Shown piece by piece: positions 2-60,154 of a DNA stretch of 64,000 nucleotides (positions are counted from its first letter, which is position 1; every line of letters begins with the position of its first letter). The position numbers and the translations under genes are program-made. Source of the DNA: Bacteroidia bacterium (GTDB lineage: Bacteria; Bacteroidota; Bacteroidia; UKL13-3); the NCBI GenBank assembly GCA_041675505.1, contig JBAYTR010000005.1, positions 53,871 through 117,870 on the forward strand, in the 5' to 3' direction. The notes under the pieces were generated by a model. That model ran no database searches. It was not told the origin of the DNA and saw only the letters and a program-made list of their open reading frames with translations.

Positions 2-2113
2 ATGAGGCCACAACTTTTGGTAACTACCAACAGCGATACCACTTTATGCAAAGGGCAGACACCAACCATCACCCTGCACACCACCGCCACCGGAGGCGAT
101 AGCAACAACTACCGCTTCCTATGGAAAGATGCTGCGGGTAATGTATTGTCTGCATTGTCTCCTCAAGATACTTTACAAGCAGCTACAGACAGCACCCGCA
201 CCTACATAGTTTACTTAACAGACGGCTGCACCATGTTACCCGATACAGCAAACAGCGCACAGGTAACCGTAACCATACGCCCTCCGTTACAACTCAGCAT
301 ACAGCCCGATACACTAGTTTGTATAGGCAGTCCTGTAACATTAACCGCACAACTTTCAGGTGGTAAAGGTGTCGGGCATTATACCATTCAGTGGTTCATC
401 TTACCTGATACTACTACCGTTAAGCATACAGGCAATACTTACACCGTTACGGTAAACAACAACCAACAGTACCAGGCTAAACTAACCGATGGCTGCACCG
501 CCACACCCGCTTGGAGCAACAGCATTACTGTGAGTACGTTTAGCAAAATACAACTGCAACCCCGCACAGATACTACTATCAACAAAGGGCAGTCGGTTAA
601 CCTTACTGCACAAGCCACAGGAGGGCAGGGCAGTGCATACACCTTTACGTGGTATAAACTCCCTGATACCAGCACTGCCATAGGCACCACCAATCCGCTA
701 ACAGCACTACCTGTACAACCCGATAGCACCACTACCTACCGCGTAATAGCTACCGATGGTTGTGCAGCCAACAGCGATACAGCACAAGTAGTGATAACCG
801 TAAGGCAACAACTCATCATAACTCACCAGGCAAACGCAGATACAGCGGCCCACACAGACACCACCATTTGTACCGGCCAAAGTGTAACCTATACGCTATT
901 GGCCAATTACCCCTCAGCCGGGCAGCAGTTCACTTGGAACCAAGGGCAGGGCACAGGTAGCACCAAAACACTTACTCCCACTACTACCACCACCTACCGC
1001 GTAATACTGAGCGATAACCAAAGCACACCCGATACAGTGTACATTACCGTAAATGTTCGTGCACCTTTACAACTGCACAACCTGCATGACACTACTATTT
1101 GCGAAGGGCAGAGCGTAACATTTAATACCTTTGCCACAGGTGGCAGCAGTAACTATTCCTTTTTGTGGGATGATAACAGCAACACCTCCAGTAAAACCTT
1201 TACCATTACCACCACAGCCATCAACGCCACGCTTACTGTAAGTGATAATTGCAGCAACCCGCAAAGCAAAAGCATCACCATTACCCCTGAACTAAATCCG
1301 AAAGTTAGTCTCACCGCCACACCCACACAAGGCTGTCCGCCATTGAACACCACCATTACCAATACCCAAAACAACAGCGGCACCTACACCCAAGACTGGG
1401 ATTTTGCCGATGGCAGCAACACACAAACCGCAACCACCAACAATGATAACAATAGCATTAGCCACAGCTATACACTTACAGCAATCTACCAACCCACACT
1501 CACCCTTACCAGCAGCAGAGGATGTAAAAGCAGTGCCGTTCTTGCCACACCCATTACCTTATTTGAAAAACCCGAAGCCAAGTTTACCCTGAGCAGAGAC
1601 ACCACCTGGATTACCTTACCTCAAATACAACTCACCAATCAAAGCAGCAAAGCCGATAGTTTTTTCTGGCACTTCAGTCGCCTCATTAACGATACCATCA
1701 CCACCAAAACAAGTAACGCCACCTTCCATCGCAACTTTACGGATAGCGGTATATACACCATATCCCTCACCGCAAAAAACAGCGCTTGTGCCGATAGTAC
1801 ACAACAAAAATTAGTAGTACTGATGGATTATGATGTGTGGATACCCAATGCTTTTAGTCCGGGTACCAAAGACAATTTAAACCCCACCTTTGCCCCTGTA
1901 GGAGTTGGAATAAGCAGGTACAAAATGATAATCTACAACCGCTGGGGGCAACTGGTATTTGAATCAAAAGGCACACAAGACAGTTGGAACGGTTGCTTAG
2001 ATAACAACCCCGACAAACCCTTGCCCGAGGGAGTATATGTGTGGTACATAGAAATATTTAACTACCACAACAGCGGCAACATAAAAGGCGGCATGGTGCA
2101 TTTGGTGAGGTAA
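2..2113 (+). CDS. T9SS type-B C-terminal-domain (gliding-motility-associated CHU_C-like) surface protein, 5'-truncated at the window edge. It carries about six tandem ~85-aa Ig-like repeats with the pattern 'TIC.GQSV...TGG.S.Y.F.W'
   Basis: The ORF runs from the window edge. Repeated Cys/Gly-Gln modules are visible. The C-terminus 'WIPNAFSPG..NLNPTFAP..IYNRWGQLVFES' matches the type-B T9SS sorting domain, and the same tail occurs in the 1760-aa protein at 12951. Confidence 0.7.
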   Translation: MRPQLLVTTNSDTTLCKGQTPTITLHTTATGGDSNNYRFLWKDAAGNVLSALSPQDTLQAATDSTRTYIVYLTDGCTMLPDTANSAQVTVTIRPPLQLSIQPDTLVCIGSPVTLTAQLSGGKGVGHYTIQWFILPDTTTVKHTGNTYTVTVNNNQQYQAKLTDGCTATPAWSNSITVSTFSKIQLQPRTDTTINKGQSVNLTAQATGGQGSAYTFTWYKLPDTSTAIGTTNPLTALPVQPDSTTTYRVIATDGCAANSDTAQVVITVRQQLIITHQANADTAAHTDTTICTGQSVTYTLLANYPSAGQQFTWNQGQGTGSTKTLTPTTTTTYRVILSDNQSTPDTVYITVNVRAPLQLHNLHDTTICEGQSVTFNTFATGGSSNYSFLWDDNSNTSSKTFTITTTAINATLTVSDNCSNPQSKSITITPELNPKVSLTATPTQGCPPLNTTITNTQNNSGTYTQDWDFADGSNTQTATTNNDNNSISHSYTLTAIYQPTLTLTSSRGCKSSAVLATPITLFEKPEAKFTLSRDTTWITLPQIQLTNQSSKADSFFWHFSRLINDTITTKTSNATFHRNFTDSGIYTISLTAKNSACADSTQQKLVVLMDYDVWIPNAFSPGTKDNLNPTFAPVGVGISRYKMIIYNRWGQLVFESKGTQDSWNGCLDNNPDKPLPEGVYVWYIEIFNYHNSGNIKGGMVHLVR

Positions 2114-5705: not shown

Positions 5706-6581
5706 ATGAAAATGTTTAACCTTTTACCCGGCATTTGTTTTCTGATGGGGTTGTTATTGCTGAGGACAACCAATTTGTATGCACAGGATTTAATTATTCT
5801 CAAAGAAAAACACGATACGCTTAAGGTCAAAGTAACAGAGGTGGGAGTGGATGAGGTAAAATACAAACTCTGGCCTGTGAATGAAAAAGATCCGGTGATA
5901 GTTTTGGAAAAAAAACGTATTCGTAAAGTGATTCTTGAAAGCGGTACAACTCTGAATTTTTTTCTTGATGACATAGATGATCCTAAGAATTATGTCGGGC
6001 AAAGGAAGCATTTGTTGAAGATGGATATTATTTCACCAACCTTAGGGGTGTCTTCTTTTGCCTATGAAAAAAGCATTAAACCAGGAAGAAGCTATGAAAT
6101 AGGATTAGGCTTGGTGGGCTTGGGGTTTAATGCTCCGGAGAATGATATCGCAGGTGCTTTTTTACGTGTTGGATATAAGTTTATCAATACACCAGATGTT
6201 ACTAACCGTGGCATGAGGTTTAGTCATTTACTTAAAGGTGGCTATGTACGTCCGGAACTTATTTTTATTAATTACACTTTCAGAAGTATCAACAGCCCTT
6301 CCACAGTACCTGTTTCAACGTATCGTACAACCGGAGGAGCATTCATTATTAATTTCGGAAAGCAATATGTGTTTAGCAACATCATTGCAGTTGATATATT
6401 TGCGGGGCTCGGTGTTGGTTCACAAAACAAAATTTTAACCTCCGGACCCGGAGATGCTTGGGATTTATTTCCTACTGGAGTTGGCTTTCTATCAGGGGAG
6501 GACGGAGAAATAACTCCGGCATTTCAATGTGGACTTAAAATGGGGGTATTACTAGGAGGTAAGAATAAAGAGAAAAAGTAG
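5706..6581 (+). CDS. Secreted paralog 1 of a four-member family: signal peptide, 'AQD' cleavage site, K-rich N-domain, and a C-terminal putative small outer-membrane beta-barrel
   Basis: The start is taken at internal 'MKMFNLLPGICFLMGLLLL'. Shared motifs with the ORFs at 7320, 8280 and 9234 include 'K..V.V.EV...V.YK.WPV', 'ESGT' and glycine-rich amphipathic C-terminal strands. Confidence 0.6.
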   Translation: MKMFNLLPGICFLMGLLLLRTTNLYAQDLIILKEKHDTLKVKVTEVGVDEVKYKLWPVNEKDPVIVLEKKRIRKVILESGTTLNFFLDDIDDPKNYVGQRKHLLKMDIISPTLGVSSFAYEKSIKPGRSYEIGLGLVGLGFNAPENDIAGAFLRVGYKFINTPDVTNRGMRFSHLLKGGYVRPELIFINYTFRSINSPSTVPVSTYRTTGGAFIINFGKQYVFSNIIAVDIFAGLGVGSQNKILTSGPGDAWDLFPTGVGFLSGEDGEITPAFQCGLKMGVLLGGKNKEKK

Positions 6582-6604
6582 AAATTATATTCTCCAAGGT
6601 TTTA

Positions 6605-7222
6605 CTACAGAATAACTTCCCCCTTGCCTTCACGTACTAACAGCGGTTCGTCTCCGCTGCAATCAATTACTGTTGAGGGAACAATTCCACCCAAACCTCC
6701 GTCAATAACTGCCGCTACCATATGTCCGAATTTTTCTTCCATCTCTTCGGGTTCAATCAGGTAATCTTCAAATGAATCAGTGCCGTGTAAGGAAGTAGCT
6801 ACCAAAGGATGACCAAATTGTTCTAACAGGGATTGTACTATTGGATTATCAGGCACACGAATACCAATTTCTTTTTTGCGGGAGTTCTTAAAAATTTTGG
6901 GAACGTTGCTGTTGGCCTTAAAAATGAAAGTATAGGGGCCGGGCAAACTCTGGTTCACCAAACGGTAAACGTTGCGTTCAAAATGAGCCGTGTATTCTGA
7001 CAGGTTTTTAAGGTCTTTGCATAACAGCGAGAAATTTGCCTTTTCTGATTTGATACCTTTTATACGGCAAATTTGCTCAATGGCTTTGAGGTTATGCGCA
7101 TCGCAGGCAAAAGCATATACGGTATCAGTAGGAATAATAATCACCCCGTCTTGTTTTAATAACTCAATCACCCGTGATAGTTCACGTGGCTGAGGATTAT
7201 CGGGGTGAAGAGTGATAAGCAT
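6605..7222 (-). CDS. tsaC: L-threonylcarbamoyladenylate synthase (YrdC/Sua5 short form)
   Basis: The 205-aa protein has 'VIIIPTDTVYAFACDA', 'IFKNSRKKEIGIRVPDNPI' and 'PSTVIDCSG', which are characteristic of the YrdC/Sua5 domain. Confidence 0.8.
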   Translation of the reverse strand: MLITLHPDNPQPRELSRVIELLKQDGVIIIPTDTVYAFACDAHNLKAIEQICRIKGIKSEKANFSLLCKDLKNLSEYTAHFERNVYRLVNQSLPGPYTFIFKANSNVPKIFKNSRKKEIGIRVPDNPIVQSLLEQFGHPLVATSLHGTDSFEDYLIEPEEMEEKFGHMVAAVIDGGLGGIVPSTVIDCSGDEPLLVREGKGEVIL

Positions 7223-7319
7223 GGAGCAAAGATAAGCAGTATAGGTATTACATACTTAACAAGAGTAGGTGGATGTGAGAAATGAATCGAATTTCTGTTA
7301 TATTGCTTATCATTTTACT

Positions 7320-8279
7320 ATGAGAATTGCAGTAACCTTGATTTTTATTTCCTTTATCTCTGCTTTACAGGCGCAGGATTCTGTATATGTAAGCGGGAAG
7401 AAGCAGCCCTTGGTATGTTATGTAAGTCGCATAACTAAAAATATAGTTGTAGTAAAACCGGATACGTTACACAACAGTAAAGCAGATACACTTTCTACAG
7501 GGTACATTACTAAAGTAGTTTTAAAAGGAGGAGTGGAAGTCTTTTTCAAAAAGCCGGTTGCGTTTTATTCTAATGACACCTTAATGATCAGGTCCAATTC
7601 AAGCACACTGAAAATGGATGTTCCCTTTTGTATACCCAATAGACTATCCCTCTCTTTTGAAACGATGGCAGGTAAAGCCTCATCAATAGAAATAAGTGCA
7701 GGTTGGGTAAATACAAACCTAAGTATTATGAGAATAAATGACGATGATAATTACAGTGAAATCAAGAGCGATTACACCCATGGCTTTTATGGTACTATCG
7801 GATATAAAATACTGCTTTCGGCTATCAATAGAAGTCCGAGTCCTTCCTATTGGCACAAGCTCACGGGGGCTTATCTACGTCCTGAAATAAATTTTTCTAT
7901 GCTTAACATTACCCGGTACGGTGAATATGAAGAGGAACAAATTGTTTTTGGCCCAACCTGGGAAGACTATACCGAGAAATTCAAACAAAAAAGTATAGCA
8001 CTTTCCTTTAACTATGGCTATCAATCTGTCGAAAGAAATAGATTAGTCTTTGATATATATGTGGGGGCAGGAGTTTCCTGGGCATCTAATCAAATGATCA
8101 GCACAACGTTTCCACCACCGTTATTTGTAATTTCCCACAGGTATTTGAACAGGTCTCCGGTAGATATGTTTTCATACATCACGTTAAAGAATGCTGACAT
8201 TAGTCCGATGCTTCAATTTGGAGTTAAGTGTGGACTTGCATTAGGTAGGAAAAAGAGCATTTCAGTTAATTCGAGATAA
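7320..8279 (+). CDS. Secreted paralog 2 (same family as 5706..6581)
   Basis: Signal peptide 'MRIAVTLIFISFISALQAQD'. Conserved 'YVSRITKNIVVVKPDT' and 'VVLKGG' in the N-domain. The C-terminus is 'GVKCGLALGRKK'. Confidence 0.6.
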   Translation: MRIAVTLIFISFISALQAQDSVYVSGKKQPLVCYVSRITKNIVVVKPDTLHNSKADTLSTGYITKVVLKGGVEVFFKKPVAFYSNDTLMIRSNSSTLKMDVPFCIPNRLSLSFETMAGKASSIEISAGWVNTNLSIMRINDDDNYSEIKSDYTHGFYGTIGYKILLSAINRSPSPSYWHKLTGAYLRPEINFSMLNITRYGEYEEEQIVFGPTWEDYTEKFKQKSIALSFNYGYQSVERNRLVFDIYVGAGVSWASNQMISTTFPPPLFVISHRYLNRSPVDMFSYITLKNADISPMLQFGVKCGLALGRKKSISVNSR

Positions 8280-9227
8280 ATGGAAAGCCGTACATATATA
8301 AGAAACATATTTTTTCATTTGTTATGCCTTGCTTGCATGTTTTTCCCGCTGGCCTTATCAGCTCAGGATACCCTATATTATGACAGTGGCAAAAAACTGC
8401 CTGTAAAGGTGATATTAGTTAATCTGGATAAGGTTGTTTACAAAAAATGGCCTGTTGATACTCTTGCTCCTTTGTATAGTGTTCCTAGGTTTTACCTGAG
8501 GAGAATTTATTTTGAGAGCGGCACCATGCTGGTGAACACGTTTACCCGATATAAGCCTAATCAGGAAGGCAGACCGTTGAATAAAGCCGGCAGGTCTGCG
8601 AAAAACAGAACAATACTGAAAACGGATGTGATGTCATGGTTTTCCTACAGAGGGTCGTTTTCGATAGAAGAGCGTATAGTAGAAAAACTTAGCTTAGAGT
8701 TTACGTATGGACTTGCGGGTGGAGGCTTTGCGGAGTCATCTTTTAAAGAACAAGGAGTTAAAGGTGATTTTTATAAAGGTGGATTAAAATTCACGTTTTC
8801 AAGAAGACACCCGCAGGAAGGATTCTACATTAAACCGGAATATGTTTACCTGAACTACACACATTCCCAACAGGGGAGGTCAATATATATTGTTGAAAGA
8901 ATTTCAAGTAACATTCTGCGATTAGACGAGTTTTATTTTGTGGCCACTAATAGAGTAACAGGTAAGGCGGGTATCATCAACTTTGGTTGGCAGCAAATGC
9001 TTACACGTCATCTTGTTTGTGATTTGTATCTTGGAGTTGGTATCGGAAGAAAAGATAAAAAGTTGGAACCTATGGAGAAACCCTATAGAGACGCAGATGA
9101 GATTTTTTTCTCGTTAGAAGATCCCGACAAAGAATTGATGGAAAATAACATTGGTTTTATGTCAGAGTACATGAATAAAAGTTCTGCCGTTATGCAGGGC
9201 GGTATAAAAATTGGAATTATCTTTTAG
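8280..9227 (+). CDS. Secreted paralog 3. Its C-terminal '...GGIKIGIIF' is a typical OMP beta-barrel terminal-Phe signature
   Basis: Signal peptide plus 'AQDTLYYDSGKKLPVKVILVNLDKVVYKKWPV'. It starts at the base immediately after the paralog-2 stop. Confidence 0.6.
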   Translation: MESRTYIRNIFFHLLCLACMFFPLALSAQDTLYYDSGKKLPVKVILVNLDKVVYKKWPVDTLAPLYSVPRFYLRRIYFESGTMLVNTFTRYKPNQEGRPLNKAGRSAKNRTILKTDVMSWFSYRGSFSIEERIVEKLSLEFTYGLAGGGFAESSFKEQGVKGDFYKGGLKFTFSRRHPQEGFYIKPEYVYLNYTHSQQGRSIYIVERISSNILRLDEFYFVATNRVTGKAGIINFGWQQMLTRHLVCDLYLGVGIGRKDKKLEPMEKPYRDADEIFFSLEDPDKELMENNIGFMSEYMNKSSAVMQGGIKIGIIF

Positions 9228-9233
9228 TGAGGA

Positions 9234-10181
9234 ATGAAAAAGTCAATCTGTTTTTTTATTGGCTTAATGTTGTTTCTTTTTCACGCCAATGTCAATGCAC
9301 AAGATACGCTCGTATACAGGAGAACCGGGCAGGTTGTCTTGGTAAAAGTCATTGAAATCAGTCCGTCTTTCATTTATTATAAGATTTGGCCTGTTCATGA
9401 TTCAGCAGCAATACAATCAGTGAAAAAAATGCGCTTGCAAAGTGTGCGCTTGCTTAATGGAGAGCGGTTGATATTTGTTTCAGCAACCAAAGTGTCGCTA
9501 GAAGCATTTACAGAACAACGAAGAATATTGATTAAAACAGAGCCAATGTTAAGCATGAGGAAATCAAGTTCTTTGTGGCTTGAATACGCATTTCATCCCA
9601 AGGTGGCTGCACAGGTAGGTTATGGGATGATTGGAACAGGTTGGGCTGCACTACAAACGGGTACTGAGAAGTTGCAAGGAAATGAATGGTCTGCCGGAGT
9701 AAAGTTTTATTTGCTGAATGTGGCATTTATGTCTCCTGAAAAGAGAAAGTTGCTTCAAGGGTTTTATCTGGCACCTGAATTCAATATGATTTCATACACG
9801 AGTCAGGCTGATTTCAAATGGCAGGTTGATACCAACGGAGTAATGGCTGCTGAAGGGGTTAGTAGCACTATCTACCAATCAAAAGGTTGGAACCTGAGTT
9901 GCTTGTTTGGTTACCAAAGGATATTTGATTTCGGTTTGTCACTTGAAGTAAATATATCAGCCGGAATAGGGAAACGAACAGAGGTAATTATTAAGGACGG
10001 GATGAATGATATTCCGCACATTCCGCTTCCCAACGGTGGATACAGAGGTTTATACAACATACCACTCAATGATGATTTTGTTGATTATGGCTATAGTGCT
10101 CCGGAGAGGGGTGTTGGCCTTACATTGCATTCCAGACTAAAAGTGGGATATCTTATTGGGCCAAGATGGAAGAAGAAGTAA
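9234..10181 (+). CDS. Secreted paralog 4
   Basis: Signal peptide plus 'AQDTLVYRRTGQVVLVKVIEISPSFIYYKIWPV'. The C-terminus is 'LKVGYLIGPRWKKK'. Confidence 0.6.
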   Translation: MKKSICFFIGLMLFLFHANVNAQDTLVYRRTGQVVLVKVIEISPSFIYYKIWPVHDSAAIQSVKKMRLQSVRLLNGERLIFVSATKVSLEAFTEQRRILIKTEPMLSMRKSSSLWLEYAFHPKVAAQVGYGMIGTGWAALQTGTEKLQGNEWSAGVKFYLLNVAFMSPEKRKLLQGFYLAPEFNMISYTSQADFKWQVDTNGVMAAEGVSSTIYQSKGWNLSCLFGYQRIFDFGLSLEVNISAGIGKRTEVIIKDGMNDIPHIPLPNGGYRGLYNIPLNDDFVDYGYSAPERGVGLTLHSRLKVGYLIGPRWKKK

Positions 10182-10289
10182 GAACTTTTTTAGAGGTGAC
10201 AGTCTTTTATGAAAACTCCTTGTTGGGCACTCCACCAAAGACTTTTTCAGCATAAACATCAATGGGAATATTAGTTACCCCGTTTTGTT

Positions 10290-10895
10290 TTATCTGGGTA
10301 CACCGGGCACAGTGCGTAGAATAAGCTCAGTTGGTGTATATCGCTCCGAACCAAAAAATGGGATATGAGATATTCCTCCATCTAATCTACACCCATTGGA
10401 ATGTTTACATTTTTTATGACTTAATGAAAGGGGGAATTTCATATAGTAAACATTTGGGGGTGTATTAAATTTTAGAGGGCTGTAGTAAAGTTCCAACTTG
10501 ATAATGTGCTGCTTCTTTTTTATAATAGTACAGGACTCTCCAGATTCATATACATCAATTTCTTTGATAAGGTTAAGCGGAGTCTCTATATTTGTTATTT
10601 CAGATTCTCTAACAGATGCTATTACAGTGCTGAACCTTCCAGAATCACTTTGAGGTATTACTACAATGAAAGTATCTTTGAGGTAAGGTCTTTTTTGAAA
10701 GGAAATAATTATACTCTCACATGAATCTTCTGATAGGTAATCTGTTTTAACCTTTGCTTCAAATATATAGTGCGGGCTGCTATCCGAAGTATTAAGTTTA
10801 ATAATGTGGCTAGAGTTTAATATTGAATCTTGAGCAAAAGCACTTTGAGTTTGATTAATGAAGCATAATATAAACATTAGAAATATACGTCTCAT
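10290..10895 (-). CDS. Hypothetical secreted protein in an AT-rich islet
   Basis: The start is taken at 'MRRIFLMFILCFINQTQSAFAQD' (signal peptide). AT content is much higher than in the neighbouring genes, and there are no recognisable motifs. The 3' ~100 nt may be read-through of non-coding DNA. Confidence 0.4.
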   Translation of the reverse strand: MRRIFLMFILCFINQTQSAFAQDSILNSSHIIKLNTSDSSPHYIFEAKVKTDYLSEDSCESIIISFQKRPYLKDTFIVVIPQSDSGRFSTVIASVRESEITNIETPLNLIKEIDVYESGESCTIIKKKQHIIKLELYYSPLKFNTPPNVYYMKFPLSLSHKKCKHSNGCRLDGGISHIPFFGSERYTPTELILRTVPGVPR

Positions 10896-10959
10896 GTAGC
10901 AAATATAACAAAAAAAGCCGCCCATATAATGAGCGGCTTTCTGGAAGTATCTTAAAGTA

Positions 10960-12890: not shown

Positions 12891-12953
12891 GTTGCAATTG
12901 CAACCTTTTGTGCGTAATTTTATCATGTATTAAGTCTGAAGCTGAATACCTTG

Positions 12954-15900
12954 ATGAAACACGTCTGTTCATTACTTCTGTTTTTTGCATTGAGTTTGTG
13001 CATTTACGCGCAGCCTGTTAATGATAGTTTTGCCCGCGCAGAAGAACTGATTATCCCTCAAAACGGCTACGGTACAGGGCAGTTTATTTCCAATAAAGTT
13101 CCGCTGGCAAACATTACCAAAGAACTTGGTGAAGCATTTTCCCCAATGCTGGTGAGTGCCGGTATGGATCGCAAAAGTGCCTGGTTTAAATTTACAGTAA
13201 ACAATACCCGGAGCGTAACCATTGATTTATTGCAAAAAGATACCATGGTCCCTCAAAATGCGGCCGGTTTAGCAATATATGAACGGGTAGTTGGTACGCC
13301 CAACATAGGTAACTTAAGCACTAAGCTTACGCCCATCAATAAATTCGGAAGCACATCTAACCTCTGCTTATCTCGGGGAGAATATTATATTCAACTTTGT
13401 GCCAGACATTATGCCACTGATACAGCTTGGATTAAAATAACTGTAAACATGCCGGGTTCACCCGACTATGACCAGATGAATACTGCAATGGATATGGGCT
13501 CCATAAGCGGGTATCGCACTACTTCATTGCAAGTTGGTTGTTTAAGTATAACCAACGAGAAAGAGTTTTTGCCATTAATTGGCAGTGATTATAAGGATTA
13601 TTCGAAGACAGCCTGGTTGATGGTGAAAACGGATAATTACACTGAAGCTTTCTCTATGTCCATGCGTGCTGCAGGTTTAGCTTATTATGGTAAGGACTCT
13701 ACCTTTTGGGGATACAGAATTTATTTTGGAAATATGGTAAATAACCCGACAGGATTAACTTGTATTGATTCAGGGGCAGTATACATAAGGAAGGGTAACT
13801 ACTTTAATAAACAAATAGACAGCGTTTGTAAATTATTGCCATACACATATTACACTATTCAGTTAATCTTTCATAAGAATGATGATTATACAATTTCTTT
13901 AGCCTTTCAAGAAGCGGGAAGTCAGCGATCGACTTCGTACCATCCTGCATATATTCCCTCTTCTCACAAGTTGGGGAGTTTGCCTATAGCACAAGGAGTT
14001 ATAACATCAGATTATTTTTCATGCGATGCCTTACTCAAAAATAATCTATGTGGTACAATTTCTCGAGGTTTTGTTGACGACAGTATTTTTACATCGATAT
14101 GGAATCCCGTAGATCAGAAATTTGACAAGATTTTTCAAAAAAACGATTCAATGCATCTCGGTCTGTGGTTTACATTTAAGCTAACACAAGATGGTCTGCT
14201 TGATATACATTCTCAAATTTATAGCTCCTCGGTATACAGAACTGCAAAGTGCATTCAGTTGTTTAAAGGAGATGCATCTATTAACTGCTATCTTTCATTG
14301 ATAGCCACATTAAAAGGTTATGGTGAGAACTTGTGTTTGAAAGCAGGGGAATATAGTGTTTTAGTTGTGGATGGTAAAAATGATGTCTACGGTATTCCTG
14401 GTTATCTTGGTTCTAATGTGATTACAAATTTATATTTTGTTCCTCTGGCAAAAGAAATTACCGCCTTTCATGATGAGCCGAATTTGGCAGATACCTTGGG
14501 TAATCTTTCAATTAAATTGGATGCATCTCCGATAGCAACTTTTGATACCAAGGAGTACAATGCCGGAGGCACAACAGATTCAGCAGTAATCGGAGGAAAG
14601 AATCTGTATGGTAGATTCACATACACTTCGTTTTATTTTGACCGTCCAGAATTGATTCGCATTGGCTTGTTTTCTGGAACAGGGAAAAAGCGTTCACCTG
14701 ATTACTATGTTATGGTCAAAGGGAAAGCAGTAGATATAGAGGATGCCTCCTGTCGTATCCCGTCTAAATACGGAGTTTTTGAATCACCCGGTTCATTCAT
14801 CTCTACCTGTCATTCTCTTGACTCAGGATGGTATACCCTTGTTGCTCAAAGTTCAACAGATTCATGTATTGAGTTTCCAGTTGGTTTCGGATTCAGAATA
14901 TGGCGTATTACACATATCACCACGCCTAACTATAATCAACCTCAAAAGGCACTGCTGGTTAATAGTGGTCAAGCACTTAGCTGGGCACCCAATAGCGGTA
15001 CTCCACAATTTCCAAAGACAAAAGCGATTTATTCAACAGGAGATCATTATTTCAATTGTATCCCAGATACCCCTTTTGCTGTTATACCAGGTTGCCAGCC
15101 ATCTTTAATAAATAACCAGCTGTTGCAAATTAATTATTATGTTTTCCAAATTGCGGAGAATAATACTTCGCTCAAAATCAGGACAAAGGATTATCTCACT
15201 AACTATCAGTCTTTTTTCGTACAATACTATCATTTGTTTAAGGGTAATTGTCTATCTAATTCTACCTTATTCGATGATACATTGAACAACATTTCTGCTT
15301 GTCAAGGTACTGTCACATATTGTGACCTTTCAGCTGGGTGGTACACGTTGGTGGTATATATGCCTAATACCATGGTGCCGCAATTAGCCAATTTTTATTT
15401 TGTGGTTGATAAACAGTATGTATCGACTTTTGATTATGCCTATAATAGTTACGATCTTGGTATGATTCCTCAGAATAATTCTGAAATAAAGTCGGCTCCA
15501 GATTTTTTCAGTTGTCGAACGGGTGCTGATACTAATAATATTGGTATGCATGCAAGTATACAGAGACCAAGCGGGAAGCCTGATTTTGTTCATCAGGATA
15601 ATGCAATCCCCAAAAATATATGGTACACATTTCAGGTTACTGGTACTGGCGATATCACAATAAAACCTTATGCTTATAAATACAATGGTGAGTATAATCC
15701 CTTTTCATATCAGGTATTTGTCTCCGATGATACCACAGGTCTGTCGTTTAATCAGCTAAAATGTGCTTCAGGCATAGACTCTACACTACAGCAAGGTTTA
15801 AAACGGGTAGCGCAAAATGGTGGGGCGATGTCAGACGGCACACCATCTTACATAACTTTTTCTAAAGCAGGGTGTGAAACCAGAAGGTATTATGTTTTGG

Positions 15901-18233
15901 TACAAAATGGAATACCTTTCAGAGATGTTTTTCAAGTGGAGCTGGGAGTTTCGTTCAAAGGCCTCGGATATCCGATTGAAGGAGACTATTGCAGTAATGC
16001 AGTTATACTAAATGCTTCTGCACCATCAACTGTTTCAGCAAAAGCAGTTGTGAATTGCCATACTGTTGGAGAAAGCTTTGGTGAAGACGGTACTAACATG
16101 GGGTGTTTGGGAGATAAAAATCAAGTGAAAACAACCTGGTTCAAATACACTTATCAATCGAACAATAAAGTCGATTTGGTTTTCAGCATAGTTAACCGAT
16201 CGAATTCGCCCTCCTCTATGATAAAGTATAGGGTACTTTATGGAAACTGTAAAAGTATGACCTCGGGTCCTTGTGTGGCAAATGGCACCGCTTCCTTTAA
16301 ACTGGATTGTATGTCGGCAGGAGAGTATTACATTCAAGTGGTTACACCACAAGTGACCGTGGGTGAGATTGAAATTCGTGTAACTGCCACCACTACGGTT
16401 TATCCTGTTTGCAAACCTTTTGACCTGAATAAGCCGTTCTCCTATTTCACACCTTATGGCGGGTGCGTGGATGGTAAAATAAAATTTACTAACTATTCTT
16501 CGCAGGGAGAAAATATTGTATACCGCTGGGATTTTGGTAACGGTACTTATTCTTCGGCATTAACACCTCAAGTGGAGTATACACAGAGATACACGGTCGA
16601 TACTTTTTCCGTGAAGCTGGTAGTTACAGATACAGTTTTACAAAAAGCTGATTCAATAACTATACCCGTATATGTGTATTATAATTCTGTATGGTTGGAA
16701 GCGGGTAGAGATACGGTTGTGAGTTGTGCGCAAGAGCTTATACAGCTCAAGGCTACAACCAATTACCCCTTCTCACAGTTTGAATGGTTTCCGGCAAATA
16801 AATTTAAGAATCCATATGAACAACAGCCTAAAGTAGTGTTGCCGGAAAATTTAGTATTCACTGTAAAGATGATAACGGAGAACTGTAGCCTCACTGATTC
16901 ACTTAAAATGTCTGTTATAGCAGATGATAAAATTGAGGGAGATTCTGTACTCAATTGTTATTCTTCACCTATCGTATTAAAAGGACCCGCAGGCTATTTT
17001 AATTATCAATGGTCAACAGGACAATTTTCTCCATCCATCACCGTAACTAAAACAGGTAAATATGCTGTGCGGATGACTAAGGGTTCCTGCCAGGTCAACG
17101 ACACCATTGAAGTTACCGGCAAAAATCCTCTATTGTTTAATTTGCCTAAGGATACTGTTATTTGTAAGACAGAACAGGTTAAGTTTTCCACTTCGTATAA
17201 AAACGTATTGTGGTCAACAGGAAGTACAGATACATCTATTTTGGTGAACACTTCAGGTAGTTATTGGATCAGAATTAATCACGAGGATTGTGAGATATAC
17301 GATACCATCTCTGTGCAAAAACACGATGTAAATGTATCATTACCCAAGCCGGTTATACTTTGTGAAGGTGCAACGGTTATGCTTCGGCCCGTGACTTCAG
17401 GCTCTCCATTTAGTTACCAATGGTCAACCGGTAGTACTGATTCTGTTTTGCAAGTAAGTCAAGGAGGGGTTTATCGTGTAGAAGTTGCACGCGACAGATG
17501 TAAAGCACAGGATTCCGCAGTAGTGCTTTTGCGCACTATTCCTTCAAGTCAATTGCCCAGCGACACCTTTTATTGTGATGAGCAACAGCTAACACTTAAA
17601 GTACCCGCTGTTTTTGATACGTATCAATGGTCAACCGGAAGTAATGCTCAGTCCATTCAGCCTTCAACTGAAGGTTGGTATTGGATACGTGTAACCAAAA
17701 ACAATTGCTCACGGGTGGATTCAGTAAAGATTGCGCGCTATATAAGTGAGCAATTTAGTTTAGGTTCTGATACTACTTTCTGTGGCGAGTTTGAACTTTA
17801 TCTGGATGGTGGTAATGCGCTTTCATATCAATGGCTTCCTCACGGGGAAACATCCCGAGTGATTTATGCTAATGAATACCGTTCTTTTGTGCTCCTCAGA
17901 AAAGATACACAACAATGTTTAACAGTTGACACCATCAGGATAAGCGAGTTTTGCGACCCTTCTATCTTTGTGCCAAATGCCTTTACGCCAAATGGCAACG
18001 GACTAAATGAGGTGTTTATGCCGGTAATGACGGATGTTGATGAATTTCAGTTGCTCATTTATAACCGCTGGGGCGAGTTGGTGTTTGAATCAACCAGTAT
18101 TGACAAAGGGTGGGATGGCACATTTAACGGTAAACCGGCTCAACAGGATGCTTATGTTTGGATGGTTTTTTTCAAAGGAAAAACATCAGGCAGCCGAAAA
18201 AATATTTCAGGTTCAGTAACCTTGTTGCGTTAA
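12954..18233 (+). CDS. Giant (~1760 aa) T9SS type-B CTD surface protein or adhesin with multiple Ig-like repeats in its C-terminal third
   Basis: Signal peptide 'MKHVCSLLLFFALSLCIYAQ'. Repeated 'Y.WSTGS..' modules. The terminal 'FVPNAFTPNGNGLNEVFMPV..IYNRWGELVFES' sorting domain is paralogous to the tail of ORF 2..2113. Confidence 0.75.
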   Translation: MKHVCSLLLFFALSLCIYAQPVNDSFARAEELIIPQNGYGTGQFISNKVPLANITKELGEAFSPMLVSAGMDRKSAWFKFTVNNTRSVTIDLLQKDTMVPQNAAGLAIYERVVGTPNIGNLSTKLTPINKFGSTSNLCLSRGEYYIQLCARHYATDTAWIKITVNMPGSPDYDQMNTAMDMGSISGYRTTSLQVGCLSITNEKEFLPLIGSDYKDYSKTAWLMVKTDNYTEAFSMSMRAAGLAYYGKDSTFWGYRIYFGNMVNNPTGLTCIDSGAVYIRKGNYFNKQIDSVCKLLPYTYYTIQLIFHKNDDYTISLAFQEAGSQRSTSYHPAYIPSSHKLGSLPIAQGVITSDYFSCDALLKNNLCGTISRGFVDDSIFTSIWNPVDQKFDKIFQKNDSMHLGLWFTFKLTQDGLLDIHSQIYSSSVYRTAKCIQLFKGDASINCYLSLIATLKGYGENLCLKAGEYSVLVVDGKNDVYGIPGYLGSNVITNLYFVPLAKEITAFHDEPNLADTLGNLSIKLDASPIATFDTKEYNAGGTTDSAVIGGKNLYGRFTYTSFYFDRPELIRIGLFSGTGKKRSPDYYVMVKGKAVDIEDASCRIPSKYGVFESPGSFISTCHSLDSGWYTLVAQSSTDSCIEFPVGFGFRIWRITHITTPNYNQPQKALLVNSGQALSWAPNSGTPQFPKTKAIYSTGDHYFNCIPDTPFAVIPGCQPSLINNQLLQINYYVFQIAENNTSLKIRTKDYLTNYQSFFVQYYHLFKGNCLSNSTLFDDTLNNISACQGTVTYCDLSAGWYTLVVYMPNTMVPQLANFYFVVDKQYVSTFDYAYNSYDLGMIPQNNSEIKSAPDFFSCRTGADTNNIGMHASIQRPSGKPDFVHQDNAIPKNIWYTFQVTGTGDITIKPYAYKYNGEYNPFSYQVFVSDDTTGLSFNQLKCASGIDSTLQQGLKRVAQNGGAMSDGTPSYITFSKAGCETRRYYVLVQNGIPFRDVFQVELGVSFKGLGYPIEGDYCSNAVILNASAPSTVSAKAVVNCHTVGESFGEDGTNMGCLGDKNQVKTTWFKYTYQSNNKVDLVFSIVNRSNSPSSMIKYRVLYGNCKSMTSGPCVANGTASFKLDCMSAGEYYIQVVTPQVTVGEIEIRVTATTTVYPVCKPFDLNKPFSYFTPYGGCVDGKIKFTNYSSQGENIVYRWDFGNGTYSSALTPQVEYTQRYTVDTFSVKLVVTDTVLQKADSITIPVYVYYNSVWLEAGRDTVVSCAQELIQLKATTNYPFSQFEWFPANKFKNPYEQQPKVVLPENLVFTVKMITENCSLTDSLKMSVIADDKIEGDSVLNCYSSPIVLKGPAGYFNYQWSTGQFSPSITVTKTGKYAVRMTKGSCQVNDTIEVTGKNPLLFNLPKDTVICKTEQVKFSTSYKNVLWSTGSTDTSILVNTSGSYWIRINHEDCEIYDTISVQKHDVNVSLPKPVILCEGATVMLRPVTSGSPFSYQWSTGSTDSVLQVSQGGVYRVEVARDRCKAQDSAVVLLRTIPSSQLPSDTFYCDEQQLTLKVPAVFDTYQWSTGSNAQSIQPSTEGWYWIRVTKNNCSRVDSVKIARYISEQFSLGSDTTFCGEFELYLDGGNALSYQWLPHGETSRVIYANEYRSFVLLRKDTQQCLTVDTIRISEFCDPSIFVPNAFTPNGNGLNEVFMPVMTDVDEFQLLIYNRWGELVFESTSIDKGWDGTFNGKPAQQDAYVWMVFFKGKTSGSRKNISGSVTLLR

Positions 18234-24442: not shown

Positions 24443-25462
24443 TTAAGAATTTGAAACTACAGCAGATTCAATTTTGCGCGGTTGATATTTTGCAGCCATC
24501 TCAGCTATTGCTTTAATGTGATCGGGTGTGGTTCCGCAGCAGCCCCCCAAAACGTTCACTAATCCTTCTTTGCAAAATTCTTCCACTTGCTTGGCCATAG
24601 CAGCGGGACTCTCGTCATATTGCCCCATTTCATTTGGTAAACCGGCATTGGGATATGCACTTACATAATACGGGGAGTTGTTGGCCATTACCTGCAAATA
24701 TGGTCTTAAAGCACTTGCACCTAAAGCACAATTTAATCCTATACTTAGTAAAGGCATATGTTGCATGCTGATAAGAAAGGCTTCTGTAGTTTGTCCGGAT
24801 AGTGTTCTTCCCGATGCATCGGTTATGGTTCCACTCACCATAATAGGAATACGTTTACCTGTTTCTTCAAATAATTCGTCAATAGCATACAATGCTGCTT
24901 TGGCATTTAGAGTGTCAGTGATTGTTTCAATCAGCAGCAGTTCAACTCCACCATCAAGCAAGCCCTTTGCCTGTTCTTTGAAAGCTACTACTAATTGGTC
25001 GAAAGTAACGGCTCTATATCCGGGGTTGTTTACATCTGGTGACATTGATGTAAGTTTTGTTGTTGGACCCATTGATCCCGCAACATATTTGGGCTTGTGG
25101 GGTTCCTTAGCTGTAAATGCATCTGCCACTTCGCGAGCAATTTTTGCTGATTGGTAGTTAATCTCATATACCAAAAAACCAAGTTCGTAATCTGCCTGCG
25201 CAATACTTGTGCTACCAAAAGTATTGGTTTCAATAATGTCTGCTCCGGCTTCCAGGTATTGTTGGTGAATGGCTTTTATAACATCAGGTCGCGTGATAGA
25301 TAATAAGTCGTTGTTCCCTTTGAGGGATAGTGGGTGATTCTTTAACTGTTCGTTTCTGAAATCATCTTCTTCCAAATGATACCGCTGAATCATGGTTCCC
25401 ATAGCGCCATCCAGTATAAGGATACGTTTTTGAATAATGTCTTTTATATTGGGTTTTGTCAT
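24443..25462 (-). CDS. metH: Homocysteine S-methyltransferase domain protein (N-terminal polypeptide of the split MetH)
   Basis: The 339-aa protein has '[10 protein letters not shown]', 'DIIETNTFG' and a C-terminal '[11 protein letters not shown]' zinc/Hcy-binding motif. Confidence 0.85.
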
Positions 25463-25520: not shown

Positions 25521-25632
25521 TGCTCATCTGTATACGAAACAGTAATTTCGTATTAGGAGTTGGCACCCGTCACTTGCCGGGTTGCCAAGACTTCACAGGG
25601 CCTATTCCCTCTGTCTTTCTTGATAAGCGTGG
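25521..25632 (-). promoter_or_regulatory. SAM-I riboswitch in the 5' leader of the split metH operon
   Basis: The reverse complement reads 'CGCUUAUCAAGAAAGACAGAGGGAAUAGGCCCUGUGAAGUCUUGGCAACCCGGCAAGUGACGGGUGCCAACUCC...ACAGAUGAGCAG'. This matches the SAM-I consensus (P1 'CUUAUC'/'GAUGAG', 'AGAGGGA', 'GGCCC', 'GGCAACC', 'GGUGCCAA..CC'). Confidence 0.85.
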
Positions 25633-57704: not shown

Positions 57705-57869
57705 GTGTGCTTACAGTGGGATAAAATTACTTCTACGGGCTTACAATTGCATCATCAGTTGGCAGGTAAATTTCAACGCGTTAAACAGCAACTGTTTGTA
57801 TTTTTTGTTTGGAGAAAAATAAAACTCTCCCTTTCTTCGCATCCGTTACTCGGTTCTTAGTTCATATAA

Positions 57870-58060
57870 TTTGAACAAAAGATTAATAGGGAATCAGGTG
57901 TAAATCCTGAACAGTTCCCGCTGCTGTAAGTTTCTGCAACGCAAGTTGCAACCTGTTGCCAGCCTTTACGTCACTGTTCACCTTTGGTGGATGGGAAGAC
58001 CGGACAACTGGGGAAATGAGTCAGAAGACCTGCCGCAATAACACAAGTGCATGTAGCTTT
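57870..58060 (+). promoter_or_regulatory. Cobalamin (AdoCbl) riboswitch
   Basis: 'AATAGGGAATCAGGTGTAAATCCTGAACAGTTCCCGCTGCTGTAAG', then 'CACTG..GGGAAG', then the B12 box 'AGTCAGAAGACCTGCC'. It lies about 110 nt upstream of the TonB-dependent receptor. Confidence 0.9.
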
Positions 58061-58171: not shown

Positions 58172-60154
58172 ATGCTGAACGAAAAATACACATGCGACTC
58201 ATTTCAACTCAGGTTACTATTAACCTTACTGAGTGTTGCCTGTGCTGTGTTCCATACCTCAGCACAAACTGATTCCTCCAAACACATACCTGAGGTGACC
58301 ATTACAGCCGTGCGCGGGGAACAGTTGCAAACAGGTGCCAAGGTGCAACAATTTACTCCCGCACAGTTACGTGCATTTGCCACAGCTAACCTGGGCGAAC
58401 TACTTTCAGCCAACACTCCGGTGTTTATTAAAAGTTACGGACCGGGTAGTTTAAGTAGCATTTCTTTTCGGGGTACAGGAGCCTCGCATACCGCAATTGT
58501 GTGGAACGGGTTTAACCTGCAAAGTTCCATGAACGGGCAAACTGATTTGTCCATGTTTCCCATAGGCACCTTTGATGAGGTGAGGTTGCAGTATGGCGGC
58601 AACAGTGCTTTGTACGGAAGTGGTGCAATTGGTGGCAGCATTTATTTGCGCAACACAGCTGCCTTGGTTGATTCACCACAGATGCACTTGGTCTTGCAAG
58701 CCTCTTCGGGAAGCTTTGGTACACAGCAATATTTTGGCAGCTACGGTTATTCAGGCAAAAGGTTTAGTACACAAGTGAAATATTACCGCAATAACTCAGA
58801 TAATAATTATTCTTTTACCAATACCGCAGCTTTTCAATCTCCTGACGTAAAACAAACACATGCGGCCTTTACCCAACAAGGTGTAGTGTTGAATGTCGGT
58901 GGGAGCGTGTCTAAATATACCCGCATCAATGCGTATTACTGGTGGCATAACAACCAACGCGATTTGCCGCCTACTATGTTGCAAAGCACTTCATTGGCTA
59001 CACAAGCGGATGAATCACACCGGGCAGCGATTGATTTTACTTATGGTCGTAACAAATGGCAAAGCATTTTACGCAGCGGATTTTTTCTGGAACAACTTCG
59101 CTACAGCGACCCGATTGCTGGTATTGACAGTAAAAATCGTGCAGTCAATTGGGTGAATGAGTTGGAGCTTTCTTATACCGTTTCACCGATTCTGAAAGTG
59201 ATATCGGGGGTAAACTTTACCACCATCAATGCATCTTCACCCGGCTATTCATCAACTGCTTCTCCTTCCCAAAACAGAACAGCCATTTTCGCAGCTGCCA
59301 GATGGGGGAAGCAAACAGCAGCCTCGCGTTTTAAATCAGACATCTCGGCACGTGCTGAAAATATTTCGGGAGTTTGGGTGCCCGTTACCTTCAGCTTCGG
59401 AACGCAGACAAGGGTAGCTAATAATTTGCACTTTCATACTTTGGTATCACGCAATTACCGTTACCCAACGTTCAATGATTTGTACTGGCAACCCGGTGGC
59501 AATTTACAACTGAAACCGGAGTACAGCTTTAATGCGGAAAGCGGATTGAACTATGTATACACTTTATCAAAGCATCAGTTCAAAGCTAACGTAACGGTGT
59601 TCAGTCATTGGGTTGATAACTGGATTATCTGGATGCCTGATTCCGTTAACCCCAACGTGTGGACTCCCAACAACGCAGCCGAAGTGTGGAGCAGGGGAGT
59701 AGAGTATGGTTTGGGTTATACCTGGCAGCCGAAGTTAAACACAGCTATTTCGGTAAACGCGTTGTATACGTGGCAGCAAGCCACACACGAGAAGGTGGCC
59801 TTTGCAGGAGATGCTGCTTTGCACCGTCAGTTAATTTATATGCCGAGACAAATGGGCTCGTTGCAACTGAGTGTGCAACACAAAAAGTGTCAATTCAGTT
59901 TTCAGCAAGTGTATAACGGTTTGCGTTTTACCAGCAGCGACAATTACAATTACCTGCCAGCATTCTGGTTAAGCAGTGCTCAGCTGTCCTACACCTTTCA
60001 ATTGAAAAAATATCCTGCCTCGGCCCGTGCGTTTGTTTCGGCAAAAAATATGTGGAATGAAAATTACCAGGTGATGTTGTGGCGAGCCATGCCGGGGCGC
60101 TACATAGAAGCAGGTTTACGATTGGAATTACAACATAAAATTAAACATCAATAA
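58172..60154 (+). CDS. btuB: TonB-dependent receptor, probable corrinoid transporter BtuB
   Basis: Signal peptide and plug domain ('VTITAVRGEQL', 'SISFRG'). The C-terminal barrel ends '...RLELQHKIKHQ'. The preceding cobalamin riboswitch supports the BtuB assignment. Confidence 0.75.
   Translation: MLNEKYTCDSFQLRLLLTLLSVACAVFHTSAQTDSSKHIPEVTITAVRGEQLQTGAKVQQFTPAQLRAFATANLGELLSANTPVFIKSYGPGSLSSISFRGTGASHTAIVWNGFNLQSSMNGQTDLSMFPIGTFDEVRLQYGGNSALYGSGAIGGSIYLRNTAALVDSPQMHLVLQASSGSFGTQQYFGSYGYSGKRFSTQVKYYRNNSDNNYSFTNTAAFQSPDVKQTHAAFTQQGVVLNVGGSVSKYTRINAYYWWHNNQRDLPPTMLQSTSLATQADESHRAAIDFTYGRNKWQSILRSGFFLEQLRYSDPIAGIDSKNRAVNWVNELELSYTVSPILKVISGVNFTTINASSPGYSSTASPSQNRTAIFAAARWGKQTAASRFKSDISARAENISGVWVPVTFSFGTQTRVANNLHFHTLVSRNYRYPTFNDLYWQPGGNLQLKPEYSFNAESGLNYVYTLSKHQFKANVTVFSHWVDNWIIWMPDSVNPNVWTPNNAAEVWSRGVEYGLGYTWQPKLNTAISVNALYTWQQATHEKVAFAGDAALHRQLIYMPRQMGSLQLSVQHKKCQFSFQQVYNGLRFTSSDNYNYLPAFWLSSAQLSYTFQLKKYPASARAFVSAKNMWNENYQVMLWRAMPGRYIEAGLRLELQHKIKHQ

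Follow-up and report, generated by a model that had tools for sequence, protein, structure and literature searches.

Four diverged genes in a tandem array of a Bacteroidia genome encode predicted outer-membrane barrels preceded by a small N-terminal module

The stretch of DNA analyzed here, 64,000 nt of contig JBAYTR010000005.1 from a Bacteroidia bacterium (assembly GCA_041675505.1) and referred to below as the window, carries near its beginning four genes for secreted proteins, one on one side of a tsaC gene and three on the other. The locus raises the question of whether these genes are related, as a preliminary description of the same DNA had proposed, and of what kind of protein they encode. 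The results place them in a widespread, unannotated family of Bacteroidota outer-membrane proteins whose architecture is distinctive but unsurprising. The genes of the array are listed below, with the positions of their open reading frames (ORFs); a slash marks the most likely cut of the signal peptide.

5706-6581, + strand: paralog A, 291 aa from the ATG at 5706; signal peptide ending ...NLYA/QD, N-domain at about 5781-5963, predicted barrel at about 5991-6557.
6605-7222, - strand: tsaC, 205 aa, between A and B, matching TIGR00057.
7320-8279, + strand: paralog B, 319 aa when counted from the ATG at 7320 (a GTG at 7269 begins the mechanically called ORF); signal peptide ending ...ALQA/QD, N-domain at about 7371-7553, predicted barrel at about 7593-8243.
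8280-9227, + strand: paralog C, 315 aa; signal peptide at 8280-8363, N-domain at 8364-8540, predicted disordered linker at 8541-8609, predicted eight-stranded barrel at 8610-9224.
9234-10181, + strand: paralog D, 315 aa; signal peptide ending ...NVNA/QD, N-domain at about 9297-9479, predicted barrel at about 9510-10160.

All four proteins proved to be homologous. BLASTP aligned them pairwise over nearly their full lengths with 20 to 28% identity, in agreement with the initial estimate of less than 30%, and the E values ranged from 1.3e-27 (A-C), 7e-24 (A-D), and 4e-17 (C-D) to 1.6e-9 (A-B), 1.6e-5 (B-C), and 2.4e-4 (B-D). To avoid circularity, hidden Markov models (HMMs) of the N-domain and of the barrel were built separately and solely from the relatives found in other organisms. 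The N-domain HMM matched all four copies (2.5e-25 for A, 8e-17 for C, 1.7e-13 for D, and 7.4e-7 for B), and so did the barrel HMM, with E values between 1e-61 and 4e-24 (1.1e-61, 2.5e-35, and 3.7e-24 for A, B, and D, respectively). When the two HMMs were run against all 273 ORFs of the window, nothing matched beyond these four. The four ORFs are thus true homologs, well past chance, with A nearest to the family consensus and B the most diverged copy.

The layout given in the preliminary description also stood. Three copies lie back to back, with spacers of 0 nt (B/C) and 6 nt (C/D), and the gene that interrupts the array between A and B is indeed tsaC, encoding L-threonylcarbamoyladenylate synthase (183 bits with TIGR00057, for a cutoff of 123). 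It is a housekeeping neighbor that separates A from B-C-D and lies outside the barrel family. Judging only by the two spacers, B-C-D would probably constitute one transcription unit. A scan of the region for sigma-70 promoters and terminators gave a result no better than that obtained with shuffled sequence, and no exact match was found when the two upstream regions were inspected by eye for the Bacteroidetes-type promoter motif.

The architecture of the proteins was studied in an AlphaFold2 model of paralog C, built with a 121-sequence alignment (mean predicted local distance difference test score [pLDDT], 90; predicted template modeling score [pTM], 0.66). In this model, a signal helix at residues 3 to 25 precedes an all-beta module at residues 30 to 85, with strands at 30-34, 39-47, 51-56, 66-69, 73-77, and 83-85. 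Strands 4 and 5 of this module are separated by a 3-10 turn (70-72). Eight long strands span residues 111 to 314. The linker that joins both parts, of 15 to 23 aa, is predicted to be disordered (pLDDT <50 at residues 91 to 102 of the model). The best structural matches in fold searches were the barrels of OprF, OmpA, and NspA, with eight antiparallel strands and a strong superposition, as in the OmpA/OprF class. An arrangement of N-domain, linker, and eight-stranded barrel is accordingly well supported, and the model predicts, at high confidence, that the C-terminal half forms the small outer-membrane barrel that had been suspected at the outset. The aromatic ending typical of outer-membrane proteins that had been implied for the copies is present in C, which terminates on an aromatic residue (...GIKIGIIF), but not in A, B, and D, where short Lys-rich tails follow the last strand. 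Charged residues conserved in the strands (K114, E130, E140, K170, E187, D248, and K310) may recall the salt-bridge-filled lumen of OmpA. Sequence searches of the PDB with the full-length profile returned nothing significant, so that no relative with a sequence-detectable solved structure was found.

The orientation of the barrel was then deduced by mapping the 121-sequence alignment onto the model of paralog C. Turns T1 (2 aa) and T3 (3 to 4 aa) are constant in length, and T2 is conserved and typically of 16 aa, with only 7 aa in paralog C. The segments that vary in length are loop L2 (8 to 31 aa), the part of the beta5-beta6 hairpin that lies beyond the membrane (14 to 38 aa), and loop L4 (8 to 44 aa); the variable segments thus fall on alternate loops, while the two shortest turns are fixed. 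Given this alternation of short fixed turns with long variable loops along eight strands, both termini and the N-domain were placed in the periplasm. The periplasmic location of the N-domains, as anticipated in the preliminary description, is quite probable on the strength of the model and of these loop statistics. L2, the long beta5-beta6 hairpin, and L4 would then be the variable elements facing outwards, the hairpin having 28 to 30 predicted residues per strand, far beyond the membrane span. Pairwise identity amounts to 0.13 to 0.24 for the outer segments, compared with 0.31 to 0.43 for the strands and 0.30 for the N-domain, and the latter therefore appears to be under a constraint of its own, its conservation being equal to that of the strands.

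The N-domain is compact, all-beta, and of about 58 aa (58 to 60 aa, rather than the roughly 70 aa first estimated). No family of Pfam, NCBIfam, or the PDB matched it significantly; sequence searches of the PDB with either the N-domain profile or a single N-domain gave nothing significant, and the fold searches with the whole model returned matches to the barrel but none to the N-domain. The weak matches recorded were a designed SH3 protein (7ur7; E = 0.005 over 26 residues), Hfq-like proteins and MJ1435 (0.7 to 0.9), and the Pfam families Tudor_2 (0.026) and SHD1 (0.13). Together with the strand order and the position of the 3-10 turn, a hallmark of the SH3 fold, they suggest an SH3-like module. 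The sole Pfam match that recurred, HCBP_related (5 of 48 sequences; best E value, 8e-5), was set aside as a generic beta-hairpin similarity. Among the relatives, the N-domain behaves as an independent module: it is duplicated in tandem before the barrel in P0059, P0078, P0100, and P0125, it occurs without a barrel in a Cnuella protein (P0169), and it is missing from P0108 and P0133, whose barrel has a different N terminus.

As for export, the residues A-Q-D follow the hydrophobic helix in all four proteins. The signal peptide had been thought to be cut between the Gln and the Asp; in the 121-sequence alignment, however, Gln29 is invariant (121/121 relatives) and Asp30 is at least 90% conserved. 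According to the Q-rule of Bacteroidetes, cleavage by signal peptidase I leaves a Gln at the N terminus, and glutaminyl cyclase turns this residue into pyroglutamate (PMC5837995, PMC10653852). Since the invariant Gln fits this rule, and all four copies carry it immediately past the cleavage site, the cut was moved to A/QD, which is the most likely position and would leave an N-terminal Gln. Each protein would thus be exported via Sec and cleaved at A/QD by signal peptidase I, and its new N-terminal Gln would be expected to become pyroglutamate.

The size of the family became apparent only with an exhaustive profile search, which covered 1.84 billion representative proteins. Counted as clusters at 50% identity, the matches numbered 2489 at E ≤1e-3, 517 at 1e-10, and 79 at 1e-30, and the best 150 relatives were mostly proteins of 260 to 330 aa in which the N-domain and most or all of the barrel matched in one stretch. 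Protein searches with a k-mer prefilter returned just 2, 6, and 2 matches and were uninformative on the N-domain architecture. In a scan of genome contigs (one genome per GTDB species), paralog C as the query found no relative, and the diversity of two alignments (A2 and A3) prevented search patterns from being derived, but a tighter alignment around paralog A succeeded and retrieved 67 family loci. Their record titles are almost all Bacteroidota and include uncultured Bacteroidia, Bacteroidales, Prolixibacteraceae, Saprospiraceae, Cryomorphaceae, Chitinophagaceae, and Cyclobacteriaceae, with Carboxylicivirga and Saccharicrinis as cultured carriers. Three titles name other phyla; these loci (L024, on CALRIT020000001.1, L039, and L061) belong to metagenome-assembled genomes (MAGs) labeled Vulcanococcus (a cyanobacterium), Bifidobacteriaceae, and Desulfobacterales. 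The taxonomy of L024 seems to be mislabeled, given the Bacteroidia gyrB/sucC synteny on its contig, and all three look like mislabeled bins and not like a real spread beyond Bacteroidota. The family is therefore large, so far found in Bacteroidota only, and mostly present in a single copy per genome.

Existing annotation barely touches the family. All the named copies that were looked up are Bacteroidota entries called "hypothetical protein," except for a Mucinivorans protein that UniRef lists as "DUF3575 domain-containing protein," and a Pfam and NCBIfam scan of the four proteins of the window gave no match above threshold. DUF3575 (PF12099), which Pfam describes as a Bacteroidetes family, reached 17.8 bits with paralog C (E = 0.0021), below its cutoff of 21.1, and did not match A, B, or D at E ≤1, while 35 of the 121 relatives matched it at E <0.01 (best value, 1.2e-7). 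OMP_b-brl and OMP_b-brl_2 (PF13505 and PF13568) gave signals with B only, of 15.9 and 14.6 bits for cutoffs of 28.7 and 27, respectively. By these scores, the barrel is a subthreshold relative of DUF3575, and the proteins of the window are peripheral to that family rather than formal members of it.

The search for the same array in related genomes, which the preliminary description had called for, located arrays at a conserved site in one lineage. Counting genes with both modules, 44 loci contain a single copy, 11 contain two, 4 contain three, and 1 contains four, and five copies are found at the metagenomic loci L006 and L007. Arrays of 2 to 5 copies are confined to one uncultured Bacteroidia lineage, whose gyrB is about 85% identical to that of the window and many of whose MAGs bear lake or reservoir sample names. 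The site within this lineage is constant (gyrB-asparaginase II-[array]-tsaC-sucC, with or without lolD), and tsaC adjoins the array in 17 related loci. Most relatives have an unbroken array with tsaC behind it; the window has A on the upstream side of tsaC and B-C-D on the downstream side; and in L006, tsaC precedes all five copies. As its position varies among relatives, tsaC is a syntenic bystander around which the array was rearranged, and its presence beside the array reflects the synteny of the lineage rather than anything peculiar to the window. Among the distant single-copy members, tsaC is nearby only on two fragmentary contigs (L050 and L073) with the same tsaC-sucC synteny; the others lie in unrelated housekeeping contexts, in which no neighbor recurs in more than 4 loci. 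A conserved operon partner was sought across the 67 loci and was not found. A functional link to tsaC was dropped, the adjacency being restricted to one lineage and variable in its position relative to the array, as were links to lolD, lolA, and the CHU_C proteins of the window (see below), which are not conserved across distant loci.

The age of the duplications was judged by identity ranking, since neighbor-joining bootstraps were unreliable owing to saturated distances. Identity within the window does not exceed 30% by this ranking, and each copy is closer to a gene of another genome. Thus, A shares 73% identity with the fourth gene in the array of MAG GCA_019695215.1 and 43 to 46% with the three genes of L009; B is 33 to 35% identical to gene 1 of L002 (35%) and genes 1 and 4 of L006 (33 to 34%); C is 35 to 44% identical to gene 2 of L002, P0006, P0007, and genes 2 and 5 of L006; and D is 39% identical to gene 3 of L006. 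The adjacency of B and C recurs, and the order in L006 is B-C-D-B-C. Because the closer match of each copy lies in another genome, the duplications predate those species, in accordance with the suggestion of an old and maintained duplication, and subtypes A to D have, by this ranking, been retained as orthologs. The array itself is an ordinary lineage-specific tandem expansion of an outer-membrane protein gene. At L010, from a distant relative (positions 6419-10311; GCA_900089805.1, FLOH01000107.1), a gene for a 203-aa putative lipoprotein has been duplicated along with the family gene, in the order lipoprotein-barrel-lipoprotein-barrel and beside lolA and ftsK, which hints at a lineage-specific lipoprotein partner there.

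Recent changes were studied by comparison with L001, a 3.4-kb contig (CAYZMN010000090.1) of MAG GCA_964479485.1 that is 98.3% identical to the window. Paralogs B to D showed 12 nonsynonymous and 9 synonymous codon changes, compared with 2 and 25, respectively, in tsaC (Fisher P = 2.7e-4). The nonsynonymous changes of B to D lie mostly in signal peptides (5 of the 12 in that of D), linkers (2 of the 12), and predicted outer segments. Small as these numbers are, they fit a core under constraint whose edges are relaxed or diversifying. The divergence from L001 is also mosaic: tsaC (6605-7222) differs in 27 codons over 618 bp (about 4.4%), nearly all synonymously, and the three barrel genes (7320-9920) differ in 21 codons over about 2.6 kb (about 0.8%). 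The excess in tsaC suggests that this gene lies in a recombination tract or in a stretch assembled from mixed strains.

Taken together, these data lead us to favor, tentatively and with somewhat less than even confidence, a family of outer-membrane anchors or tethers with the layout of OmpA inverted. Once exported, the C-terminal two-thirds of each protein would be inserted into the outer membrane by the beta-barrel assembly machinery (BAM) as an eight-stranded OmpA/OprF-like barrel, probably with a closed lumen packed with charged residues. The SH3-like module of about 58 aa would hang in the periplasm on its flexible linker of 15 to 23 aa; the barrel would hold the protein in the membrane, leaving the N-domain to bind peptidoglycan or a periplasmic or lipoprotein partner. 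The protein would thus be a stand-alone structural outer-membrane protein in the inverted order, soluble module first and barrel last. One uncultured Bacteroidia lineage would have expanded a single ancestral gene by tandem duplication into subtypes A to D, kept across species and differing most in their surface-exposed parts. It is the inverted OmpA layout that suggests a structural anchor or tether, and the lack of a conserved partner gene fits a stand-alone structural protein. The tether function as such is the most plausible of the readings and is, if anything, a little more doubtful than the overall scheme. Several points weigh against this interpretation: the ligand proposed for the N-domain is purely putative; its SH3-like assignment is based on strand order and weak matches; the topology derives from the model and loop statistics; a pTM of only 0.66 leaves the relative placement of the two domains undefined; and the bootstrap support of the neighbor-joining subtype tree is low, the distance transform having given undefined values where distances were saturated.

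The same structure could serve surface diversity instead, the hairpin and loops acting as adhesins, as receptors for phages or predators, or as decoys, the array providing surface variants, and the N-domain stabilizing or assembling the barrel. L2, the beta5-beta6 stalk, and L4 are indeed the most divergent parts in sequence and length, both among the paralogs and across the family; the hairpin far exceeds the membrane span, arrays arose in one lineage only, and the changes relative to L001 (12 nonsynonymous to 9 synonymous in B to D versus 2 to 25 in tsaC) point the same way. Variable outer loops are, however, generic to outer-membrane proteins and no proof of diversifying selection, and of those 12 changes, five are in the signal peptide of D and two in linkers. 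Moreover, the subtypes are old and orthologous, without quick turnover, most genomes have a single copy, and an N-domain as conserved as the strands (0.30 versus 0.31 to 0.43) argues for a function of its own, all of which makes this explanation an unlikely one, if with a real chance. A small-molecule channel similar to OmpW, AlkL, or CarO, or a lipid-modifying enzyme similar to PagL or PagP, to which the N-domain would deliver substrate or which it would regulate, is very unlikely: the best matches of the model are the closed anchor barrels of the OprF N terminus, OmpA, and NspA, and the strands carry conserved alternating Lys/Glu/Asp pairs, as in the OmpA lumen, without a Ser-His-type catalytic set. 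In addition, the neighborhood shows no conserved partner gene for metabolism or transport, and the Pfam and NCBIfam scans gave no match to the OmpW, PagL, or PagP family.

Two known export or assembly systems also had to be considered. That the proteins are accessories of a type V (Mfa/Fim) pilus or of the type IX secretion system (T9SS)/gliding apparatus is suggested by the distant relationship of the barrel to DUF3575, whose Bacteroides thetaiotaomicron genes are listed next to those for DUF3868 and Mfa1 fimbrilin (PMC10434189), and by two large CHU_C-type proteins in the window (2-2113 and 12951-18233), the same large protein being found near the loci of relatives. Nevertheless, fimbrilin, Mfa2/FimB, DUF3868, and PorP/SprF genes are not adjacent in the window or at the 67 loci, the commonest neighbor at distant loci occurs in only 4, and NCBIfam, including its models of T9SS components, matches none of the four proteins; nor did NCBIfam or Pfam give a match to PorP/SprF. 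The CHU_C genes do not adjoin the array; the CHU_C gene is parted from it by sucC and lolD and forms part of the lineage synteny. We consider such a role highly improbable. The most far-fetched alternative is that the N-domain reaches the cell surface in the manner of an autotransporter passenger. The layouts are alike (N-terminal passenger, linker, C-terminal barrel), and one relative has a weak match to the Pfam autotransporter beta-domain (7.9e-5), but autotransporter barrels are 12-stranded, with a helix or linker in the pore, and the barrel described here is predicted to be 8-stranded, of the OmpA class, and without a passenger pore; furthermore, its linker is predicted to be disordered and was read as lying outside the barrel.

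The family is of interest because outer-membrane attachment and organization are much less understood in Bacteroidota than in Proteobacteria. It is common, with about 2500 clusters at 50% identity, and is usually represented by one gene among housekeeping genes. For annotation, it offers a definable new domain, the N-domain of about 58 aa, which neither Pfam nor NCBIfam covers, and for experiments, a tractable candidate envelope tether in the cultured genera Carboxylicivirga and Saccharicrinis. A bolder extension, which we regard as quite unlikely, would see the family as unrecognized tethers throughout Bacteroidota, in which a new SH3-like module links the anchor to peptidoglycan or a lipoprotein while arrays supply differing surface hairpins, e.g., for escape from phages.

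Further features of the window deserve mention. Between the array and sucC, on the - strand, lies a gene (10290-10925) for a secreted hypothetical protein of 211 aa with the junction ...AFA/QD, which matched neither the N-domain HMM nor the barrel HMM. Its second Met (MRRIFLMF..., at about 10895) is the likelier start, since the first is overlapped by a strong terminator-like hairpin of sucC (10942-10912, 14-bp stem), and L012 has a weak homolog (28% identity) in the equivalent position. The two CHU_C-type proteins mentioned above, both encoded on the + strand, are very large, rich in repeats and in Thr/Ser, and end in a gliding-motility/T9SS CHU_C-type domain; the one at 2-2113 extends past the start of the window. 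Its DNA is strongly skewed in composition (GC skew, -0.24 to -0.30; AT skew, +0.23 to +0.28). A cobalamin riboswitch (57834-58052, + strand; 86.5 bits) lies 5' of a 660-aa ORF (58172-60154) and three more ORFs on the + strand, which probably form a B12 uptake operon. An S-adenosylmethionine (SAM) riboswitch (25521-25629, - strand; 76.9 bits) lies 5' of a - strand ORF (24443-25462); at the corresponding position, L004, a syntenic relative, carries an S-methyltransferase gene along with one resembling metH.

Comparison with known systems helps to situate the family. DUF3575 is the only one with a recurring sequence signal, and both are small outer-membrane barrels in Bacteroidota. The 177-position model of DUF3575, however, spans the barrel only, and the proteins of the window add the N-domain of about 58 aa and the linker. 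DUF3575 proteins appear in a table of a study of Porphyromonas gingivalis outer-membrane vesicles (PMC12937337), and the fimbrial neighborhood in which the B. thetaiotaomicron genes are listed, beside DUF3868 and Mfa1-fimbrilin genes (PMC10434189), is absent around the loci of the present family. For its part, the N-domain would share with SH3-like small barrels (bacterial SH3b, Sm/Hfq, and Tudor) its five to six short strands and the 3-10 turn between strands 4 and 5, but none of the SH3, SH3b, Tudor, and Sm families matches it significantly.

With the N-terminal barrels of OmpA and OprF (PDB 1qjp, 3nb3, and 4rlc), the proteins share the eight-stranded structural class at an identity of 11 to 17%. 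The order is inverted here, the soluble module being N-terminal and all-beta instead of the alpha/beta OmpA_C; the proteins stop at the last barrel strand, and neither Pfam nor NCBIfam gave a match to the OmpA family. A closer parallel in layout is offered by the OmpM/SLH-porins of Negativicutes, Deinococcus-Thermus, and cyanobacteria, among which Veillonella OmpM1 (PDB 8byt) appeared as one of the weak Foldseek matches. In OmpM, the barrel forms a large, trimeric porin with about 16 strands, and the N-terminal part consists of an S-layer homology (SLH) domain and a coiled-coil stalk, whereas the proteins of the window have 8 predicted strands and no SLH signature, Pfam having found no SLH domain in either the whole proteins or the N-domains. 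The likeness is therefore architectural only, with no detectable homology. Nevertheless, OmpM likewise joins an N-terminal periplasmic module through a linker to a C-terminal barrel, and its module binds the cell wall in what has been described as an outer-membrane attachment system, which makes it the nearest known working example of the role proposed here.

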